Source: Anaerolineae bacterium (GTDB taxonomy: Bacteria > Chloroflexota > Anaerolineae > B4-G1 > DUEL01). Taken from it: a DNA stretch of 64,000 bases. Numbering within the stretch: the stretch's first letter is position 1; each line of letters starts with the position of its first letter. Below, in pieces: positions 4,215 to 33,514 of this stretch. Below the pieces are notes generated by a model that was not told the origin of the DNA, did not search any database, and saw only the letters and a list, made by a program, of their open reading frames with translations. Both the position numbers and the translations under genes were made by a program. Location: positions 5,504 through 69,503 of the forward strand of contig JBDOIF010000093.1 of the NCBI GenBank assembly GCA_041082215.1, in the 5' to 3' direction.

Positions 4215-4865
4215 ATGGGTGGGCGGATCACGGCCCTGAAGGTGCAAAAAAGGAACCGACAACGGGTCAACGTCTACCTGGACGGCCGCTTCGCCTTCGG
4301 ATTGGCAGCGATCGAGGCCGCACGACTCAAGGTCGGCCAGCTCCTCTCCGATGAGGAGATCGTCCGCCTGCAGGAGCGAGATGCAGTGGAACGGGCCGCC
4401 GAACGGGCGCTCGGCCTGCTCTCCTACCGTCCTCGTAGCCGTTCGGAAGTGCGTCGCCGGCTATCGGAAAAAGGGTACGAACAGAACACTACCCAGGAAG
4501 CGCTGATCCGGCTGGAACGGGTCGGCCTGCTGGATGACCGGGCGTTTGCCCGCTACTGGGTGGAAAACCGACTCCAGTTCAACCCCCGGGGCGCGGCCGT
4601 CCTGCGGCAGGAGCTTCGACAAAAAGGGGTGGATGACCAGGTCATCGAGGAGGTCCTGGCAGAATACGATGAGGAGGAAGCTGCAGCCCGCGCCGCCGAA
4701 ACGGCGGTCCGCCAGCTCCGCCGTCTCGACCCCCCCACCTTCCGCCGCAGGCTCAGCGACTACCTCCGTCGCCGGGGATTTCCCTACGGCGTGATCGAGT
4801 CCCTGGTCGAACAGGCGCTGACCACCCACGACCCCGGGGAGCCTTGGGAGGAAAATGGAAAATGA
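4215..4865 (+). CDS. recX: recombination regulator RecX
   Basis: MGGRITALKVQKRNRQRVNVYLDGRFAFGL... is a typical RecX N-terminus followed by three-helix repeats. The ORF-track start at 4167 lies inside the terminator hairpin, so the ATG at 4215 is preferred. Confidence 0.8.
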   Translation: MGGRITALKVQKRNRQRVNVYLDGRFAFGLAAIEAARLKVGQLLSDEEIVRLQERDAVERAAERALGLLSYRPRSRSEVRRRLSEKGYEQNTTQEALIRLERVGLLDDRAFARYWVENRLQFNPRGAAVLRQELRQKGVDDQVIEEVLAEYDEEEAAARAAETAVRQLRRLDPPTFRRRLSDYLRRRGFPYGVIESLVEQALTTHDPGEPWEENGK

Positions 4866-6665: not shown

Positions 6666-7012
6666 ACGTTTTTCCAATGTTCTACCAGCCGCCGGATGCG
6701 GATGCGCTGGGCACGGAGCCAGCGGCGGGGACCCAGGATCGCCCGCCCGAACTCCGGTGGGCGGTCCGGCAATCGCCTCAACTTTCCCTCCGCAACCAGC
6801 CGCTCCCAGAAAGTGAAAAACCGCGCCTCCAGCTCCTGATCGCTGAACTCCTCCCCGCGCTCGTACACCTCTCTGGCCAACTGCTCGATGTAAGCGGCCG
6901 TCTCTTCGATCAACGTCTCCACCGGCTCAAAAACCACCCCCCACCCGTAGACGGGGTCCAGAGGCATCGAGCCGAACTCCATTGGGGAAGGAGGGCGAAG
7001 CTTCTCTTCCAC
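6662..7012 (-). CDS. hypothetical protein (116 aa)
   Basis: Intact ORF in a coding-dense context with no recognisable family. The start may be the internal MEFGSM. Confidence 0.45.
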   Translation of the reverse strand: MEEKLRPPSPMEFGSMPLDPVYGWGVVFEPVETLIEETAAYIEQLAREVYERGEEFSDQELEARFFTFWERLVAEGKLRRLPDRPPEFGRAILGPRRWLRAQRIRIRRLVEHWKNV

Positions 7013-7035
7013 AGGGCCTCCTCTCTAAGCGCTGC

Positions 7036-7644
7036 TCACCTTTCCTGAACCCATCGCCGCAACAGGGGGAGAGCTGCCTGAACCGCCCGCGCGCGGTGGC
7101 TGATCCGATTCTTCATCTCGGCGGACAGCTCGGCCATCGTACAGCCCATCTCCGGCAGGTAGAAGACGGGGTCGTAGCCGAACCCTCCCTCCCCCGCCGG
7201 CGCGGTGGCGATAACCCCCTCGCAGACCCCCTCGGTGGTGTGGAACTCTCCCTCGGGGGTCACAATGGCCAGCACACACCGGAAGCGGGCGGTGCGCTGT
7301 TCCCAGGGGACCCCGTCGAGATGCTTCAGGAGGGTGGCGAACCGCTCGGCGTCGGTGCCGAAGGTGTAGCGAGCAGAGCGGATGCCGGGAGCCCCGTCCA
7401 GCGCATCCACCTCCAGGCCGGAATCGTCGGCCAGCACGACGGCCTGCACCCCCCGTTCCCGGAGCGCCTGAGCGTAAGCCAGGGCCTTGATGCGGGCATT
7501 CTCGGCGTAGCTCGCCCCGTCCTCGGCCACCTCCACCTGTAGCCCCAGGTCCGGTGGAAAGAGGGGTCGGGCCGGGAGGGATGCCAGCAGCGCCCGATAC
7601 TCCCGTATCTTACCCGCATTCCGTGTGGCTACGAAAAGCTCCAC
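7036..7644 (-). CDS. rdgB: dITP/XTP pyrophosphatase (Ham1/RdgB family)
   Basis: The sequence runs from MELFVATRNAGKIREY to FGYDPVFY, with the conserved Ham1 motifs. Confidence 0.9.
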   Translation of the reverse strand: MELFVATRNAGKIREYRALLASLPARPLFPPDLGLQVEVAEDGASYAENARIKALAYAQALRERGVQAVVLADDSGLEVDALDGAPGIRSARYTFGTDAERFATLLKHLDGVPWEQRTARFRCVLAIVTPEGEFHTTEGVCEGVIATAPAGEGGFGYDPVFYLPEMGCTMAELSAEMKNRISHRARAVQAALPLLRRWVQER

Positions 7645-20596: not shown

Positions 20597-20683
20597 TGGT
20601 GCCGAAGGTGGGAGTCGAACCCACACGGCCGTACGGCCACTGCGCCCTGAACGCAGCGCGTCTGCCAATTCCGCCACTTCGGC
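20597..20683 (-). tRNA. tRNA-Leu (anticodon CAG), type II with long variable arm
   Basis: Reverse complement reads GCCGAAGTGGCGGAATTGGCAGACGCGCTGCGTTCAGGGCGCAG...GGTTCGACTCCCACCTTCGGCACCA. The anticodon loop is CTGCG-TTCAGGG-CGCAG and the CCA end is encoded. Confidence 0.9.
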
Positions 20684-24470: not shown

Positions 24471-24499
24471 TTGACTTCTCCGTCACTGTGTGTTATACT
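24471..24499 (+). promoter_or_regulatory. sigma70-type promoter TTGACT-17-TATACT with TGn extension
   Basis: ttgacttctccgtcactgtgtgttatact. It sits immediately upstream of the cobalamin riboswitch. Confidence 0.7.
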
Positions 24500-24504
24500 C
24501 TCCC

Positions 24505-24700
24505 CGACAACTGAATACGGCCTCGACAGAGGTGCCCCAAAGCCCGGATGTGAGGGGCACAAAGGGGGAAGACCGGTTCAAGTCCGGCGCTGTCCCGCAA
24601 CTGTAGGGACACGATTTGTCCGTGTCCAAGCCAGGATACCCGCCTCTGTCGGCGCCCACGCAACCTTCGCGGAAAGGGGGTGGCGCATGAAGGGCAAACA
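24505..24700 (+). promoter_or_regulatory. cobalamin (B12) riboswitch aptamer
   Basis: GGTGCCCC...AAGGGGGAAGACCGGTTCAAGTCCGGCGCTGTCCCGCAACTGTAGGGAC matches the conserved B12-element core (AAGGGAA-GGTGnAAnTCC...GCTGcCCCCGCAACTGTAA). Confidence 0.85.
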
Positions 24701-24710
24701 GACCTGCCAG

Positions 24711-24746
24711 GCCCTTCCCCGAGTAACGTGAGGGGAAGGGCTTTTT
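24711..24746 (+). terminator. intrinsic terminator (riboswitch expression platform)
   Basis: GCCCTTCCCC-gagtaacgtga-GGGGAAGGGC followed by TTTTT. Confidence 0.8.
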
Positions 24747-24857
24747 CAATAACCACCACAGAGACGCAGAGGACACGGAGGGAACCCGGTTACAGGAAAC
24801 TCCGTGAGCCTCATCTCCTTCGCATCTCAACGGTGAAGCATCTATGAGGAGGAAACT

Positions 24858-25946
24858 ATGTCCCGCGTATTCGTGGCGAGTGGACTCGCCCTGATCTTGC
24901 TTGCAGGTTCTGTCTTCCCGGCCTTTGCCAGCGACCCGGTGGGAACAGCGCTGGCTTATCTGGCCGCCCAGCAGCAGCCCGACGGTGGCTTCACCAACGG
25001 CTTCAGCGCCGGTTCCGACCTGGGCACTACCTGCGATGTGATCCTGGCCATAGCTGCCGCCGGGCAGGATGTCAGCACCTACCGCTCCTCCAACGACCGC
25101 TCGCCGCTGGACTACCTGGCCGCCCAGATAGCAGCCGGAGCAACGGAAAAAGTGGGCATCAAGGCTAAAGTGGTGCTGGCCCTGCTCGCCGCCGGGCAGG
25201 ACCCCGCCAGCTTCGCCGGCCACGATCTGCTGGCCGAACTGGAGGCCGCTTACGACGCGGAGAGCGGCAGCTACGGCTCCAATATCTTTGACCAGGCGCT
25301 GGTGATGCTGGCCCTCTTCAACGCCGGCCGACCAGTGCCGGAGGGAGCGGCCCAGTACCTGCTGGATAACCAGTGCACCGACGGAGCCTGGGCCCTCTTC
25401 GGCGGCACAACCCCCGGCACGGGCGACACCAACACCACCGCCCTGGCCATCCAGGCCCTCCTGGTCACCGGCCACCGGGACGACATCGGCACGGCCTTCG
25501 CCTACCTGCAGCGAGTCCAGAACACCGACGGCGGCTTTCCCTACCAGAACCCCTCTCCCTACGGCACCGACACCGACGCTAACTCCACCGCCTACGTCCT
25601 CCAGGCGCTGCTGGCAGCCGGCGAACCGCTGGGGAACTGGACCCCGGCCGGCACCGATCCGGCGGGGACGCTGGTCAATCTGTACGACCCCACCAGCGGG
25701 GCCTTCTTCTGGCAGACGGCCTATCCCTTCCCCAACGTCTCGGCCACTGCCCAGGCGATCCCCGCACTGCAGGGGTACACCTTCGTGAACCTGCCCCGGG
25801 TGGGCGCGACCATCGCCCCCCAGGCAGTGTCCACCATCCCCCTGCTGCCGGAGACCGGCGGGGCGGCTGGCTTGCCGGTAGCCCTCGGGGTCGCTGGTGC
25901 AGCGATGATCGGGGTGGGCCTTGCCCTGCGCCGCCGTGGCCGGTAG
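24858..25946 (+). CDS. secreted prenyltransferase/squalene-cyclase-like (alpha/alpha toroid) repeat protein with C-terminal LPXTG sorting signal; candidate cobalamin-binding alpha-domain protein
   Basis: Signal peptide; repeated QxxDGGF/W-type motifs (QQQPDGGF, NQCTDGAWALF, VQNTDGGFPYQ, DPTSGAFFWQ); C-terminal LPETGG followed by a hydrophobic stretch and RRRGR. It is the first gene after the B12 riboswitch, with AGGAGGA 7 nt upstream. Confidence 0.8.
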   Translation: MSRVFVASGLALILLAGSVFPAFASDPVGTALAYLAAQQQPDGGFTNGFSAGSDLGTTCDVILAIAAAGQDVSTYRSSNDRSPLDYLAAQIAAGATEKVGIKAKVVLALLAAGQDPASFAGHDLLAELEAAYDAESGSYGSNIFDQALVMLALFNAGRPVPEGAAQYLLDNQCTDGAWALFGGTTPGTGDTNTTALAIQALLVTGHRDDIGTAFAYLQRVQNTDGGFPYQNPSPYGTDTDANSTAYVLQALLAAGEPLGNWTPAGTDPAGTLVNLYDPTSGAFFWQTAYPFPNVSATAQAIPALQGYTFVNLPRVGATIAPQAVSTIPLLPETGGAAGLPVALGVAGAAMIGVGLALRRRGR

Positions 25947-26772
25947 CAAACGGGCCTGCAGGGGGGCGCGATACGTCGCCCTCCTGGTCGCTGGGGCGCT
26001 GCTCGTCGCCAGCCCGACGGCGGCGCAGGAGCCGCCCCATCGGGCCGGCCTGGTGGTGGTCCACGGGGACGGGCGGGCGGTCACCCGCTGCGTCTCCTTC
26101 GCCGAAGAGGCCATCACCGGAGTTGACCTGCTTCGCCGCTCCGGCCTCTCTGTGACCCTGTCCGCCTTCGGTGGGCTGGGATACGGCGTCTGCGCGATAG
26201 ACGGGGAGGGGTGCCAGGCCGAAAACTGTTTCTGCCAGTGCCAGGGGAGCCCCTGCGCCTACTGGGTCTACTCCCATCGCCAGCCGGATGGCTCGTGGGC
26301 CATCTCCGGCGTGGGGGCCAGCTCCTGGCAACTGCGGGACGGCGATGTGGACGGCTGGGTGTGGGGGGACGGGTCTACCGCTCCCCCACCCCTCCCCTTT
26401 GAGGCCATTTGCCCGGAAGATGCCGCTCCGCCTCCGACAGAACAACAGCCATCCCCGACAGCCGCCGGGTCTCCCACCGCACCGTCCACCCCACCCCCAT
26501 CGCCGACACATGCCATCGCCACCGCCACCCCTGCACCGCCCTCCGTCACAGCTACCCCAACCACCCCGCCAGGCCCCAGCCCGACCGTCCCCCCAACCCC
26601 CAATCCAACCATCCTCCCTACCCCCACGGACCGGCCTCCCGTATCCTCCCCCACCCCAACCTCCCAACCGGCAGCCGCTTCCGGTGTCTCTCCTGCCGGC
26701 TATGCCTTCTTCGGCCTCTTCACCCTGGGGCTGGTGGGCTTGCTCCTCTACGTCCTTTTGCGGCAAAAATGA
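25921..26772 (+). CDS. secreted Cys-rich DUF4430-like domain protein with Pro/Thr-rich stalk and C-terminal TM anchor; candidate cobalamin-binding beta-domain protein
   Basis: A signal peptide is followed by a globular domain of about 100 aa (CVSFAEE...GEGCQAENCFCQCQGSPCAYWVYSHRQPDGSWAISGVG...WQLRDGDVDGWVWGDGS), a long PT-rich linker and a C-terminal TM helix. It may start at TTG 25921 or GTG 25936. Confidence 0.65.
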   Translation: MPCAAVAGSKRACRGARYVALLVAGALLVASPTAAQEPPHRAGLVVVHGDGRAVTRCVSFAEEAITGVDLLRRSGLSVTLSAFGGLGYGVCAIDGEGCQAENCFCQCQGSPCAYWVYSHRQPDGSWAISGVGASSWQLRDGDVDGWVWGDGSTAPPPLPFEAICPEDAAPPPTEQQPSPTAAGSPTAPSTPPPSPTHAIATATPAPPSVTATPTTPPGPSPTVPPTPNPTILPTPTDRPPVSSPTPTSQPAAASGVSPAGYAFFGLFTLGLVGLLLYVLLRQK

Positions 26773-27569
26773 AACTCCGAAGCGCGATCTCCGGTTCCAT
26801 CTACGGGCTGAGTGCCGTCCTCGGCATCCTGGCCTTTCTGTACCCCTTCTTCCTCCACAGCCAGACGGCGGCTGCCGTAGGGCTGGCCCACAGCCAGGAC
26901 GCGCCGCTGGTGACGACGATGCTGGTGGGGCTTTCGCTGCTGGCCCTGCTGGTGGAAATGGAAGGGGAAGCGCTCAGCGCCAAGACGGTTGCCCTGCTGG
27001 GTGTGCTGGTCGCTCTCACCAGCGCCCTGCGCTTCCTGGAGGTCGCTTTCCCGATGCCCGGCGGCTTTTCCCCCATCTTCGCCTTCATCATCCTCGCTGG
27101 CTATGTCTTCGGCGGGCGGTTCGGCTTCCTGATGGGCGTGTTTACCCTGCTCGCCTCCGCCCTGATCACCGGAGGGGTAGGCCCCTGGCTTCCCTACCAG
27201 ATGTTCACTGCCGGCTGGGTCGGCCTCACGGCCGGCTGGCTCCCACGCAAAACCCAGCACACGACGCGCTCCATCCTCCTTCTCTCTATCTTCGCCTTCG
27301 CCTGGGGCTTTCTTTACGGCGCGGTGATGAACCTCTACTTCTGGCCTTTCGCCGTGGGGCCGGCCGGGCAGAGCTGGCAACCAGGCATCGGGCTGAAGGA
27401 GACCCTGGCCCGTTACGCCGCCTTCTACATCGTCACTTCGCTGGGATGGGACCTGATGCGGGCATTGGGGAACTTCGCCCTGATCCTGCTCCTGGGAGCG
27501 CCGGTGGTCCGGGTGTTCACCCGCTTCCGGCACCGCTTTCACTTCGAACTGGAGGCCAGCAATGGTTGA
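26769..27569 (+). CDS. polytopic membrane protein, probable ECF-type substrate-capture (S) component
   Basis: 267 aa with about 7 TM helices. It lies directly upstream of, and overlaps, the EcfT-A-A' fusion, and sits in the B12 riboswitch operon. Confidence 0.55.
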
Positions 27570-30330
27570 TGTGCGGGCCTGGCTTCTCTGGGCGCTGACG
27601 GGGACGGTGATCGCCTCCTCCACCCGCAACCCCCTCTATCTCTTCCTTCTGGTGCTGACGATCGCGGTGGTGGGCGCGGCCCGGCCATCCGGCTCCAGGC
27701 GGAAGCAGGCCCTATCCTCCCTCCGCTTTACAGCGGCAGCCGTCCCTCTGGCCGCCCTGTTCAACGGCCTGACCGCCCACATCGGCGATACGGTCCTTTT
27801 CCACCTGCCTGCCCGACTCCTGCTGATCGGCGGGCCGGTGACGGCGGAAGCCCTCATCTATGGGGCGATCAGCGGCCTCACACTGACCACAATTCTGAGC
27901 GCTTTCGCCGTCTTCAACCAGGTGACGCCGGTTCACGAACTGGTGGGCCTCACCCCACGCGCCCTGCACGAGACCGGCATCATCCTCTCCATCGCCCTCA
28001 CCTTCATCCCCCAGACGGGCCGCAGCCTGACCCGTATCCGGGAGGCCCAGGCTGTGCGCGGCCACCGCCTGCGGGGACTTCGCGGCTGGCTCCCTATCCT
28101 CATTCCCCTCCTGGTGAGCGGGATGGAACAGTCTATGGGGCTGGCCGAGGCGATGGTCGCCCGCGGGTACGGCTCCGTTTCGGACCGGGACCATTCCACC
28201 CGCACACGGGGGCTGCTGGCCCTGGGACTGCTCGGCGTGCTCGGGGGGTGGCTGGGGATGCTTTTCCTCCCTGCCTGGAAGTATGCTGCGCTGGTCGGGT
28301 TGCTGGCCGGCGGCCTTCTCGTCATCAGCGCACTGTGGCTGGCAGGACGGGCCGCTCCACGGACCGCTTACCGCCCCAGGCGGTGGACCCCTCAGAGCAC
28401 GCTGGTCGTTCTGGGCTGTGGGGCGGCGCTGGCTGCGGTCCTGTTGCCCTGGCCCGGAGCCGAAACGGCAGCCTATACACCCTACCCCAGCCTCACCCTC
28501 CCCCCCTTCGACCCGGCTGTCGGGCTGGGCCTGCTGGGGCTGCTGATGCCAGCACTGGCTGCAGAACGGCGACCTGCACGAGAGGAGGCCCGGGGACCGG
28601 TCCGTTCCTGCGCTCCTGTGACCTCATCCCCTTCTCCTGCGAGGAAAGGGGGAGGGAACGGGGATAAGGTCTCCAGACCCCTATCAGATGCCCCCTTCAT
28701 CCAGTTCAGCCGGTTCACCTATACTTACCCCCAGGCCCTCCACCCTGCCCTCTCCGGGGTGAACCTCCGCATTGAGGAAGGGGAATTCGTGCTGGTGACC
28801 GGCGTCTCCGGTGCAGGCAAGTCCACCCTGCTGCGGGCCCTCAACGGCCTGGTTCCCCACTTCAGCGGGGGGAAGGTGCAGGGCCACGTCTCCGTCGCCG
28901 GGCACAGCCCCGCCGTAGAAGGGCCGCAGGTGCTCAGCCGGGTCGTCGGCTTCGTCTTTCAGGACCCCGAGGCCCAGTTCGTCGTGGATCGGGTGGAGGA
29001 CGAGATCGCCTTTGCGCTGGAGAACCTGGCCCTCCCCCCTGCCCAGATGCGCCTGCGGGTGGAGGAGGTGATGGACCTCCTGGGGCTTACCCCACTGCGG
29101 GATCGGCCGCTGGAGAGCCTCTCCGGAGGGGAGAAGCAACGGGTCGCCATCGGCGCAGCCCTGGCCCTCCGCCCCCGCGTCCTCGTCCTGGACGAACCCA
29201 CCTCCCAGCTCGACCCCTGGTCGGCCGACGAGGTGTTGCAGGCCCTGGTGCGCCTGAACCGGGAGCTGGGCCTCACCGTTATCCTGGCCGAACACCGGCT
29301 GGAGCGAGTCCTCCCCTACGCGGACCGGCTGGTCTACCTGCCGGCCCCCTCGGAGGGGAGGCGGCGGAACGGGCGGGTGCTGAGCGGCCCACCCCGCCAG
29401 GTCCTTCCCCGGATGGAGCTGACGCCGCCGCTGGTCACCCTGGGCAAGGCTCTGGGCTGGGACCCGCTCCCCATTACCCTGGAGGAAGCGCCAGCGACCA
29501 GCGGCGAGCTACGGACAACCAGTAACCAGCAACCAGCAACGAGCTACAGGCAACCGGCAACCCTTCTCCGCATACGGGGGCTTTCTTTCAGCTACGGGGC
29601 CACCCCAGCCCTGCGCGGTGTGGACCTGGAGGTGGGGATGGGAGAGCTGGTGGCATTGATGGGGCGCAACGGCTCCGGCAAGACCACGCTGCTGCGATGC
29701 GTCGTGGGGCTGCTGCACCCTTCAGGGGGAGAGATCGAACTGGAAGGTCGCTCTCTTGTGGGGCTGGACCCGACCCGCATTTGTCGGCAGGTGGGGTATC
29801 TGCCCCAGGAGCCGGACGATCTGCTCTTTGCCGAGACGGTGGCAGAGGAACTGGCCGTCACCCTGCGCAACCACGGCCTTCTCGACCGCCCGCCTATCTC
29901 CCCTGCTACCCTGCTGGAGCGCCTGGGGCTGGGGGGTGTGGCGACGGCCTACCCGCGCGACCTGAGCGTTGGCCAGCGGCAGCGGGTAGCGCTGGGGGCG
30001 GTCACCGTCACCCGGCCCCGGCTCCTGCTCCTGGACGAGCCAACGCGGGGGATGGACTACCTCGCCAAGCAGGGACTGGTCCGCCTGCTCCGGGAATGGC
30101 AGGCGGAGGGGGTCGGTGTCCTGCTGGTGACCCACGATGTGGAGCTGGCAGCTCAGGCAGCGGACCGCGTGGTGGTGCTGGACCAGGGGGAGGTGGTCGC
30201 AGCGGGCCCCCCATCGGAAGTGCTTTCCGGCCCCTCCCTTTTCGCCCCCCAGATCGCCCGGCTCTTTCCGGGCACGGGCTGGCTGACCGTCGAGGAGGCG
30301 CTGGCAGGGCTGGCTAGGGGGAGTGGATGA
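27562..30330 (+). CDS. triple fusion EcfT-EcfA-EcfA' (ECF transporter T component fused to two ABC ATPase domains), 922 aa
   Basis: An N-terminal CbiQ/EcfT membrane domain of about 230 aa is followed by a Pro-rich linker. NBD1 carries [17 protein letters not shown] and VLDEPTS. NBD2 carries [17 protein letters not shown] and LLDEPT. Confidence 0.85.
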
Positions 30331-31960: not shown

Positions 31961-33514
31961 ATGGGAAAAAAGAGCGGGCTATGGACCGTTGCGGTTGCGG
32001 CGGTGCTTGTTCTGGGGACCCTGTCGGGATGGGCAAATGCAGCGCCGTCGCTCCAGGGGACGGGAGAGAACCTGCTGAAGAACCCGGGGTTTGAGGGGCT
32101 CACCTGCAACCCGGCCTCTCCGCCGGGGTGGTGCTACGATAACTGGACCCGCGATACCTACAACGGGATTCCCTATGGGGAGATCTTCACTCCACAGGGA
32201 TGGGTCACGTTCTGGAGCGAGGGGACGAACCCGGCAGATGGGCGGAAGTACGGTCGGCCGGAGTGTAAGGTCATCCCCAAGCAAGCCCCCTTCCTGGGCC
32301 CTCCGGCCCGCATCCGCAGCGGGAACTACGCGATCATGCAGTTCGGTTTCTTCCGCGCCATTGACTCCGGCGTGTACCAGGTCGTCACCGGGCTGACGCC
32401 CCACGCCATCGTCCAGGCCTCCGCCTATGCCCACGCCTGGGCCTGCGGCGACGACGAGCACGGGGCCTACTCCTGCGGCGAGCCGTATCAGATGCTCTTC
32501 CGCGTCGGCATAGACCCCAACGGCGGCACCAATCCCTGGAGCCCGACCGTCATCTGGGCCAGCGGCTACTCGTACGACGAGTACCGCCTCATCGGCCCGG
32601 TGCAGGCCGAGGTGGGCGATGCTGGCACGGTTACCGTTTTTCTGCGGGCAACGGCCAAGTGGCCCCTGAAGCACAACGATGTCTACTGGGACGATGCCTC
32701 CCTGATCTACGTCACCCCGCCGGCCACACCGACCAACACCCCGCTGCCCCCGCCCCCCACGGCAACGCCCGGCCCCTCTCCCACTCCGCTGCCCACCCCC
32801 ACCCCCCGGCCCGATGGCGCCATCGTCCACATCGTCCAGCCGGGCGACACGCTCTTCGGCATCGCTCTCCAGTACGGCGTGCCGATGGAGCAGATTCAGC
32901 AGTTGAATGCCGGCTCCATCGGCCCCAACAATCTGATCCAGGTGGGTCAGGAGCTGGTCATCGCCATACCCTCCGCCACCCCCACCCCGGTTCCGCCCCC
33001 CACTCAGGTGGCAGAGGTCACCGCCACTCCTGCGCCCGCCGAGGTAGGGGCGGTCTGTGTGCTGGCCTACCATGACCGAAACGGGGATACCTTCCGGCAG
33101 CCAGACACAGAAGAGCCATTGCCCAACGCCGTCTTCTCCCTGGGCGATGCGAGCGGCCTTCTGGGGCAATACACCACCGACGGCCTGAGCGAGCCCTACT
33201 GCTTCACCGGGCTGGCCCCGGGCACCTACCGGGTGGCCATGCAGCCGCCAGCGGGCTATGTGGCCAGCGGGCCTTCCGACATGGCGCTCGCAATGGGCAC
33301 AGGGGGAGCGCTGGAAATAGCTATGGGGGCCAGGCGAGGCGAAGCACCGGCCACACCCGAAGGGTCGGAAGTGGTCCAGCCGGAACCCACAGAGGAGGCC
33401 ACCTCGGGCCTGCCGCTGGTGCTCCGCCGGGCGGCCGGCGTCAGCGGCATCCTGCTTCTGGGGCTGGCACTGGCAGTGGCCGTCCTCTTCGTCCTCTCCC
33501 GCCTGCGACGGTAG
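31961..33514 (+). CDS. secreted multidomain protein: carbohydrate-binding-like N-terminal domain, Pro/Thr linkers, LysM domain, SdrD-B/Cna-B-like domain, C-terminal TM anchor
   Basis: Signal peptide; NLLKNPGFE... beta-sandwich region; LysM (IVHIVQPGDTLFGIALQYGVPMEQIQQLN); a VCVLAYHDRNGDTFRQPD...GTYRV region; hydrophobic C-terminus followed by RLRR. Confidence 0.75.
   Translation: MGKKSGLWTVAVAAVLVLGTLSGWANAAPSLQGTGENLLKNPGFEGLTCNPASPPGWCYDNWTRDTYNGIPYGEIFTPQGWVTFWSEGTNPADGRKYGRPECKVIPKQAPFLGPPARIRSGNYAIMQFGFFRAIDSGVYQVVTGLTPHAIVQASAYAHAWACGDDEHGAYSCGEPYQMLFRVGIDPNGGTNPWSPTVIWASGYSYDEYRLIGPVQAEVGDAGTVTVFLRATAKWPLKHNDVYWDDASLIYVTPPATPTNTPLPPPPTATPGPSPTPLPTPTPRPDGAIVHIVQPGDTLFGIALQYGVPMEQIQQLNAGSIGPNNLIQVGQELVIAIPSATPTPVPPPTQVAEVTATPAPAEVGAVCVLAYHDRNGDTFRQPDTEEPLPNAVFSLGDASGLLGQYTTDGLSEPYCFTGLAPGTYRVAMQPPAGYVASGPSDMALAMGTGGALEIAMGARRGEAPATPEGSEVVQPEPTEEATSGLPLVLRRAAGVSGILLLGLALAVAVLFVLSRLRR

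Follow-up and report, generated by a model that had tools for sequence, protein, structure and literature searches.

We have analysed a 64,000-nucleotide stretch of DNA from an Anaerolineae bacterium of the phylum Chloroflexota (contig JBDOIF010000093.1; the whole stretch is hereafter called the window), and we believe, with a probability of roughly 0.7, that the gene at 25921-26772 on its forward strand (gene 2) encodes the cell-surface corrinoid-capture module of a vitamin B12-repressed energy-coupling factor (ECF) uptake system. This reading draws together the fold of the gene-2 domain and the clade marker within it, a cobalamin riboswitch upstream of the operon, an S-component resembling that of the cobalamin transporter ECF-CbrT, the synteny of these genes across related loci, natural fusions of gene2-type domains to an alpha/alpha-toroid, the structure of the toroid protein that gene 1 encodes, a related locus (L052) with corrinoid salvage genes, and the surface architecture of the gene-2 product.

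Gene 2 and its product

Gene 2 is a real gene, and its translation includes every peptide quoted in an earlier, sequence-only reading of this DNA. It is laid out as follows.

25921-26772, plus strand: gene 2, a 283-residue precursor; start codon TTG 25921 or GTG 25936.
25921-26025, plus strand: signal peptide, residues 1-35, as read from the sequence; predicted cleavage at about TAA/QE.
26026-26424, plus strand: Cys-rich beta-grasp (SLBB, transcobalamin-beta-like) domain, residues 36-168 (133 residues, 8 Cys).
26425-26691, plus strand: Pro/Thr/Ala/Ser-rich stalk, residues 169-257 (89 residues; P 34%, T 20%, A 13%, S 12%).
26692-26772, plus strand: C-terminal transmembrane (TM) anchor, helix at about 258-280, with an RQK tail and the stop codon.

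The only in-frame starts before the hydrophobic core are TTG 25921 and GTG 25936, and because both lie upstream of the gene-1 stop (TAG 25944-25946), the overlap with the upstream gene that the sequence-only reading had remarked upon is real in the window, at 26 nt from the TTG or 11 nt from the GTG. At the other end of gene 2, its stop overlaps the start of gene 3 in the ATGA at 26769-26772. The N terminus resembles a signal peptide, with basic residues K10, R11, R14 and R17, a hydrophobic run from Y18 to A30 and then ...PTAA/QE, and a comparable basic and hydrophobic segment opens all of the full-length homologues. The small Cys-rich globular part, the Pro/Thr stalk and the membrane anchor described in the earlier reading are all present, with a hydropathy maximum of 2.41 over residues 262-280. 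The product is presumably exported and held in the membrane by its C-terminal helix. A minus-strand open reading frame (ORF) at 25675-26766 and long plus-strand ORFs at 26288-27598 and 26409-27569 were rejected as high-GC shadow or extension ORFs; the region has a G+C content of 65-67%, at which long ORFs in other frames and on the opposite strand are the usual shadows.

A transcobalamin-like fold in a divergent sequence family

An AlphaFold2 model of the globular domain, built from a 50-sequence alignment, has a predicted local distance difference test score (pLDDT) of 92.8 and a predicted TM-score (pTM) of 0.87. DSSP assigns strands at 5-12, 18-25, 43-47, 53-58, 79-85, 91-93 and 108-114 and a helix at 32-38 (domain numbering), giving the order b1, b2, helix, hairpin (43-47/53-58), b3, b4, b5, that is, a beta-grasp with a hairpin straight after the helix. 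A beta-hairpin inserted at this point marks the transcobalamin-like clade of SLBB domains (Burroughs et al. 2007, PMC1796856), and the model combines it with the five-strand beta-grasp core of that clade. When the model was compared with the PDB by Foldseek, the top 18 matches were solely transcobalamin, haptocorrin or intrinsic factor chains or the DUF4430 structure 3U7Z (E 2e-4 to 2e-2, query TM-score (TMq) 0.51-0.62). The isolated transcobalamin beta-domain is represented among them in both its free and its cyanocobalamin-containing form (5NO0, 5NP4). When the small targets among these matches are used for normalisation the TM-score is 0.67-0.76, and the next beta-grasp matches have a TMq of at most 0.39. 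The nearest solved structures are thus the beta-domains of transcobalamin, intrinsic factor and haptocorrin or DUF4430, and the genomic setting of the clade, a secreted or surface protein together with an alpha/alpha-toroid and CbiQ/CbiO-type (ECF) genes, is also found here.

At the level of sequence the picture is different. In a Pfam hmmscan the gene-2 protein had no match to PF14478 (DUF4430) or PF01122 (Cobalamin_bind) at E<=0.1, and neither 8 homologues nor 70 relative sequences had one at E<=10, the 70 coming from alignments of 50 (A1) and 20 (A6, which includes short-type domains) with a few sequences in both. No transcobalamin or DUF4430 chain in the PDB was matched by a single sequence (phmmer) or by two family profiles. 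The check that had been suggested with the sequence-only reading therefore came out negative, and the DUF4430-like label it proposed survives by fold, in the AlphaFold model and Foldseek comparison, but not by sequence. Because the fold matches where the sequence does not, the modelled domain is best described as a divergent family of the transcobalamin-like beta-grasp fold, and not as a detectable member of PF14478. The NCBIfam model SCO2322_fam (NF040672) scores the gene-2 protein at 17.8-18.1 bits (E about 3e-3) and matches 33 of 35 gene-2 relatives at E<=0.1 (best 2.6e-10), in every case below its curated cut-off of 85 bits. A precomputed tag, PF28005.1, is attached to many relatives at 42-57% identity (P0044, P0048, P0051 and others) and to the fusion proteins P0082, P0226 and P0227, and is absent from the closest relatives of gene 2.

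Between the clade-specific hairpin and strand 3 lies a Cys-rich insert of about 20 residues (domain positions about 59-78, CQAENCFCQCQGSPC; ...GEGCQAENCFCQCQGSPCAYW); in transcobalamin the corresponding general region and the hairpin contact B12 (Burroughs et al., PMC1796856). We counted the co-occurrence of cysteines in 287 near-full-length domains. C57 and C164 (profile columns 22 and 130) are both present in 213 and both missing from 73, with one of them alone in only 1 and 0 domains; likewise C107 and C112 (columns 74 and 79) occur together in 209, singly in 2 and 0, and not at all in 76. The other four, C91, C98, C103 and C105, are 97-100% conserved in a C-x6-C-x4-C-x-C pattern. For an exported protein this distribution would fit two optional and two fixed disulfides, and the disulfide-rich character suggested previously gains indirect support from the pairwise co-occurrence; it is conceivable that the four fixed cysteines form a metal site.

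The family is large. A word-indexed search with the globular part returned 81 homologues down to E 4e-66, those with names being Chloroflexota (Anaerolineae, Chloroflexia), and in full-length homologues, as in gene 2, a signal peptide is followed by the domain, a variable linker rich in Pro, Thr and Ala, and a TM helix with a basic tail. The domain profile reaches 3818 cluster representatives (clusters at 50% identity) at E<=1e-3, 929 of them at E<=1e-30, and relatives occur in 459 species-level genomes. All of the best 80 relatives bear Chloroflexota-type labels, including Anaerolineae, Thermoflexia, Caldilineae, Chloroflexia, Thermomicrobia and Dehalococcoidia, and cultured members among them are Thermalbibacter longus and a Thermomicrobium strain. 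In domain numbering, the invariant positions are C56, G62, C63, C70, W80, W91, G106, W111 and W113, within a GDVDGWVWG motif. The region after the domain, stalk and TM helix together, is unalignable and varies from 45 to 307 residues (median 133), and a hydrophobic C-terminal tail is present in 73 of 75 homologous ORFs. We found no experimental work on the family in the literature. One database entry, P0081 (177 residues), has an N-terminal half with primase-type Pfam tags (PF09250, PF19779) and a C-terminal half consisting of the end of a gene-2 homologue (...GDVDGWVWGDGSTAPP...), stalk and TM helix; it is probably a chimera of assembly or gene calling.

A cobalamin riboswitch and an ECF operon

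Gene 2 is the second of four tightly packed genes preceded by a cobalamin riboswitch, with these neighbours.

24471-24499, plus strand: candidate sigma-70-like promoter, TTGACT-17-TATACT, with TG before the second hexamer.
24513-24661, plus strand: cobalamin riboswitch aptamer (RF00174), full-length model match at 75.8 bits against a gathering score of 31.5.
24709-24748, plus strand: terminator-like expression platform, 12-bp GC-rich stem (24709-24720/24732-24743), 11-nt loop, UUUUU.
24858-25946, plus strand: gene 1, secreted alpha/alpha-toroid protein of 362 residues with a signal peptide and a sortase-type signal (LPETGG, hydrophobic stretch, RRRGR).
26769-27569, plus strand: gene 3, ECF S-component, CbrT-like (Pfam PF07155, PF12822); its ATG overlaps the gene-2 stop.
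27562-30330, plus strand: gene 4, EcfT (CbiQ)-EcfA-EcfA' fusion of 922 residues (Pfam CbiQ and two ABC_tran stretches), overlapping gene 3 by 8 nt.

The riboswitch is the sole one in the window. The promoter candidate just upstream of it is a consensus match only, agreeing at 10 of 12 positions where shuffled sequences gave a mean of 0.1 sites. Downstream, the terminator-like hairpin folds with a minimum free energy of -23.8 kcal/mol (z -2.85); it was revealed by folding, a pattern scanner with a loop limit of 8 having flagged no terminator, presumably because the 11-nt loop exceeds that limit. Searched against the PDB, the gene-3 family profile has a single meaningful match, chain A of 6FNP (182 residues, E 1.4e-6), which from the size of the chain we take to be CbrT, the S-component of ECF-CbrT, and gene 4 scores 346 bits against NCBIfam ECF_ATPase_1, above the cut-off of 315. 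The operon thus has the riboswitch, the CbrT-related S-component and the EcfT and EcfA/A' proteins of a B12-regulated ECF operon of the CbrT type, and the B12 context proposed in the sequence-only reading is now supported by evidence beyond its own, namely the riboswitch and the CbrT-like S-component.

Gene 1 matches the Pfam families SQHop_cyclase_N/C above threshold, Cobalamin_bind weakly and below the cut-off (E 1.3e-4), and NCBIfam SCO2321_fam at E 2e-35 (122 bits, below the cut-off of 300). Its AlphaFold2 model has a pLDDT of 83.6, mostly above 90 in the toroid itself. In Foldseek the closest structures are single-domain cyclase-like toroids; rat, human and bovine transcobalamin stand at ranks 4, 10, 14, 15, 17 and more, with the lowest root-mean-square deviation (rmsd), 4.7-5.3 A. 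We rejected a terpene cyclase function for gene 1, whose product is an exported, LPETG-anchored single toroid; by eye no DxDD motif is evident, the corresponding repeat reading DTDANST. Public names of toroid partners (P0246, P0251, P0295) include 'prenyltransferase/squalene oxidase repeat-containing protein' and 'terpene cyclase/mutase family protein', and in view of the export signals, riboswitch and ECF context these are probably misleading.

Elsewhere in the window, a secreted 517-residue protein (31961-33514, plus strand; translation read by eye) has a LysM-like segment, Pro/Thr-rich linkers and a C-terminal TM helix with an RLRR tail, and its sharing of the stalk and C-terminal TM design suggests a common surface-display format in this organism. 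A tRNA gene (20600-20683, minus strand; RF00005, 51.9 bits) overlaps spurious long ORFs.

Conservation across related loci

Synteny was counted in 80 related loci. In 58 of the 68 with sufficient upstream sequence, a toroid gene on the same strand ends less than 1.5 kb upstream of the gene2-type gene; 62 of 72 loci have ECF T/A genes, and 30 of 59 toroid proteins carry LPXTG/LPXSG-type signals. Of 24 loci scanned for the riboswitch, 20 have it directly upstream of the toroid/gene-2 pair; the others are three Thermomicrobia-type loci and L009, where it precedes the second copy of the cluster. In addition, nature has joined the two proteins: P0082, P0226 and P0227 consist of a signal peptide, a gene2-type domain, a short SLBB domain and a toroid, and P0106 and P0166 of two such domains, a toroid and further domains. 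The partnership with the toroid protein that the sequence-only reading had put forward is thus upheld as far as adjacency and fusion go, and the pairing of the two proteins themselves is a plausible extension of it. Finally, L052 (5896-9783) has a gene2-type gene and an S-component gene with cobS, a xylose-isomerase-like TIM-barrel gene and cobU directly after them, and a cydB-like gene and two ABC genes (probably cydDC) upstream. The genes cobS and cobU serve cobinamide salvage, and the SLBB/S-component pair here is embedded in a corrinoid salvage cluster.

Some Anaerolineales loci (L003, L009) have two tandem toroid and SLBB units followed by a single ECF S/T gene set; in L003 each unit has its own cobalamin riboswitch (4431-4595 and 6882-7072), and in L009 only the second copy has one at gathering score (6895-7093). 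In Thermomicrobia-type loci (L027, L033, L036, L038, L044-L046, L048, L055, L059) the ORF directly upstream of the gene-2 homologue, reached by extending the toroid match, ends not in an LPXTG signal but in a conserved ...FGYPLSEEF..G.VVQYFERARFEWHPG.WPER.DVLL.RLG module; tblastn found no S-component beside the ECF T/A genes of these loci, and a scan of three of them gave no riboswitch in the 6 kb upstream. Many secreted toroid or SLBB proteins with neither LPXTG nor TM tail have a short, conserved sequence at their very C-terminus, (V/F)(Y/F)LP(L/I/V)(I/V)x(K/R), for example YLPLILR, VYLPLVIR, VYLPIVIKDD or VWLPLIRR (toroid ORFs of L037, L054, L069, L071, L077 and L020; P0106, P0166, P0062, P0074 and P0070). 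This motif could be an undescribed C-terminal sorting or anchoring tag of Chloroflexota.

A model for corrinoid capture

The general pathway can be outlined as follows. When B12 is low, transcription would pass the riboswitch and the four genes would be expressed; when it is plentiful, the riboswitch and terminator hairpin would shut off all four. The gene-1 toroid protein would be attached to the wall by sortase, and the gene-2 product, after Sec export and cleavage of its signal peptide, would remain in the membrane by its C-terminal helix. Its stalk of about 90 residues, which fully extended might span tens of nanometres, would carry the 133-residue beta-grasp domain, presumably stabilised by disulfides, into or beyond the cell wall. 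The transcobalamin beta-domain, whose fold it has, grips one face of B12. At the wall the gene-2 domain would most likely bind cobalamin or cobinamide, either as a lid on the central cavity of the LPETG-anchored toroid, as the two domains of transcobalamin do, or alone, as the isolated transcobalamin beta-domain can. The ligand would then be passed to the CbrT-like S-component, with EcfT-A-A' powering import.

Several observations weigh against this model, or at least against its simplest form. HMMER finds no sequence-level link to DUF4430 or transcobalamin, which leaves fold and context as the grounds for common ancestry; the E-values from Foldseek are modest; and the gene-1 sequence profile resembles squalene-hopene cyclase repeats and not transcobalamin. 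The overlap of genes 1 and 2 is not conserved, the distance from toroid stop to domain start being 72-298 nt in most loci, with a few outliers and with short gaps in many. The translational coupling and 1:1 stoichiometry that the sequence-only reading had derived from the overlap lose their footing with it. Many Caldilineae-type loci, in which a shorter, less Cys-rich SLBB domain is fused directly to the toroid (more than 100 proteins; type, L068 4335-5840), still keep a gene2-type gene immediately upstream of the S-component gene, and L052 has no toroid gene within 6 kb. Two further points, on cobalt and on heme, are taken up below.

An alternative is that the gene-2 product is a shuttle or hand-off protein for the S-component and not the beta half of a two-chain transcobalamin, its tethered domain binding the corrinoid alone or taking it from the toroid trap and then docking on the S-component, in the manner of an extracytoplasmic substrate-delivery protein serving an ECF transporter. 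We consider this possible, though on balance doubtful, and it overlaps with the capture model. Besides the Caldilineae-type fusions and L052, it is favoured by a second paralogous copy of the domain in 19 of 80 loci, by the rearranged loci L047, L074 and L078, where gene 2 stays with the S-component gene and not with the toroid gene, by the ATGA overlap of genes 2 and 3 in the window, and by the ability of the isolated transcobalamin beta-domain to hold cyanocobalamin (PDB 5NP4). Against it, the toroid of the window lineage has no SLBB domain of its own, so that gene 2 is the only candidate cap; no arrangement is commoner than adjacency to the toroid gene (58 of 68 loci); and where no toroid gene is nearby, one could lie elsewhere in the genome. 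The gene2-type genes kept beside fusions and the loci lacking a toroid argue against a simple, obligatory two-chain transcobalamin, and there is probably more to the gene-2 protein than supplying the beta half that a split transcobalamin lacks. Together with the rearranged loci, L052 and the unconserved overlap, they suggest a role of the gene2-type domain tied to the S-component, as delivery or as a second binding step, and in the window lineage the domain may cap the toroid as well.

A more elaborate version, which we regard as unlikely, is a two-tier relay in which the wall toroid traps the corrinoid, the stalked domain delivers it to the S-component, and the C-x6-C-x4-C-x-C cluster would be more than structural, acting in cobalt thiolate ligation or corrinoid processing. 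In BtuM, a cysteine supplies the thiolate ligand to cobalt.

It is improbable that the operon imports a different tetrapyrrole (heme) or free cobalt, with the Cys cluster as a metal site in place of disulfides. B12 riboswitches control cobalt transporters too, and the four near-invariant cysteines could suit a metal. Moreover, the depositors of 3U7Z called it a 'putative metal binding protein', Burroughs et al. (PMC1796856) point out that the ligand site occupies the place where beta-grasp ferredoxins have their Fe-S site, and the Lactobacillus sakei operon Lsa1836-1840 has been linked to heme by a deletion mutant and docking (bioRxiv 10.1101/864751). The riboswitch, however, is of the cobalamin class and is conserved in 20 of 24 loci, the S-component is not of the CbiM type and finds no meaningful match in the PDB other than CbrT, cobalamin transport by ECF-CbrT meets no competition from hemin (PMC5997447), and L052 has cobS and cobU as neighbours; as for a metal site, a domain located outside the cell whose optional cysteines come and go strictly in pairs fits disulfides. 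That gene 2 is a generic secreted beta-grasp or cell-wall bystander, in the operon by chance and with no role in B12 uptake, is scarcely credible: the beta-grasp is a common fold, no characterised family matches the sequence, and four of the 80 loci (L028, L051, L053, L072) have neither toroid nor ECF gene nearby, but synteny holds across Anaerolineae, Thermoflexia, Caldilineae, Chloroflexia, Thermomicrobia and Dehalococcoidia, toroid fusions occur, the reading frame overlaps both neighbours, and the structural neighbours belong specifically to the transcobalamin family.

Significance

The concept of bacterial transcobalamin-like proteins has been known since 2007, and a split alpha/beta pair is known in L. 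sakei, so what we describe is a new divergent member and not a new kind of system. What is new is a sequence-divergent, Cys-rich, stalk-tethered member from Chloroflexota, related to the unstudied actinobacterial SCO2322 family. The capture of B12 at environmental (picomolar) levels by monoderm bacteria that rely on ECF transporters is poorly documented, we found no demonstration of B12 binding by the proteins predicted in 2007 in the searchable literature, and the one operon of this kind that has been studied by experiment was ascribed to heme. The window thus offers a riboswitch-anchored test case, with a small ectodomain that is likely expressible, a defined partner and a CbrT-like transporter, in a large Chloroflexota family (3818 clusters at 50% identity, 459 species genomes) from a phylum that is plentiful in sediments, hot springs and wastewater. 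Textbooks describe ECF transporters as importers that need no binding protein, and one question raised here is whether they can use extracytoplasmic capture proteins; another is whether bacteria possess, as two chains, a counterpart to the two-domain clasp with which animals hold B12. There is also a consequence for annotation, in that the labels 'hypothetical', 'prenyltransferase/squalene oxidase repeat protein' and 'terpene cyclase' hide a capacity for B12 scavenging.

Comparison with known systems

The beta-domain of mammalian transcobalamin, intrinsic factor and haptocorrin (2BB5, 5NO0/5NP4, 4KKI, 2PMV) resembles the gene-2 domain in its fold and post-helix hairpin, and the family resembles it further in being secreted, partnered with an alpha/alpha-toroid domain and set in a B12 context. 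At about 10-17% identity, however, the likeness is undetectable by HMMER, and unlike transcobalamin the gene-2 protein has the additional Cys-rich insert of about 20 residues, probably with up to four disulfides, and is a separate polypeptide on a Pro/Thr stalk and TM helix instead of being fused C-terminally to the toroid. The natural fusions reverse the domain order of transcobalamin, placing SLBB first. The best small-domain match is the DUF4430 protein RUMGNA_00854 of Ruminococcus gnavus (3U7Z; target-normalised TM-score 0.74-0.76, rmsd 3.5-3.7 A), likewise bacterial and secreted; the gene-2 family has no PF14478 match, and newer Pfam tags some relatives as a separate family, PF28005.

In operon logic the closest parallel is that of L. 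sakei, where Lsa1839 (transcobalamin-beta-like) and Lsa1840 (transcobalamin-alpha-like) accompany the ECF genes lsa1836-1838 (bioRxiv 10.1101/864751). Both systems have separate secreted beta-like and alpha-like proteins, an S-component, EcfT and a fused EcfA-A', and the preprint proposed that the secreted alpha- and beta-like proteins feed the S-component, in that case with heme. In contrast to gene 2, the L. sakei proteins are transcobalamin homologues detectable by HHpred, are described as soluble and were assigned to heme, and the preprint mentions no riboswitch (the word occurs 0 times); the window operon, for its part, is preceded by a cobalamin riboswitch and encodes a CbrT-like S-component, a toroid protein with an LPXTG anchor and a beta-grasp protein with a Cys-rich insert and a TM tether.

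Among Actinomycetota, gene 1 and relatives of gene 2 match the families SCO2321 (NF053823) and SCO2322 (NF040672), respectively, and the consecutive locus numbers suggest an adjacent pair there too. The scores are far below the cut-offs (122 against 300 and 18 against 85 bits), which makes these distant relatives and not members, and we found no functional literature on SCO2321-2324.

The Bacteroides lipoproteins BtuG and BtuH differ from gene 2 in their unrelated folds (BtuG is a beta-propeller), in belonging to a diderm outer-membrane TonB system and in their lipid anchoring. They are functional analogues all the same, being cell-surface proteins of B12-regulated loci with a suggested role in scavenging cobamides and handing them on to a membrane transporter (PMC13616437).

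For the S-component of gene 3, the closest solved relative is ECF-CbrT of Lactobacillus delbrueckii (6FNP; Santos et al. 2018, PMC5997447), an ATP-driven ECF importer of cobalamin and cobinamide. That transporter has no extracytoplasmic binding protein and uses an ECF module common to other S-components, whereas the window operon encodes a fused EcfT-A-A' of its own along with two surface proteins. Bacterial transcobalamin-like SLBB proteins with signal peptides and Gram-positive anchors had already been described by Burroughs et al. (2007, PMC1796856), who noted that they are fused to toroids in either order, that further SLBB paralogues can be encoded in one operon with them and that CbiO/CbiQ genes are neighbours, and who predicted the scavenging of B12 as their role.

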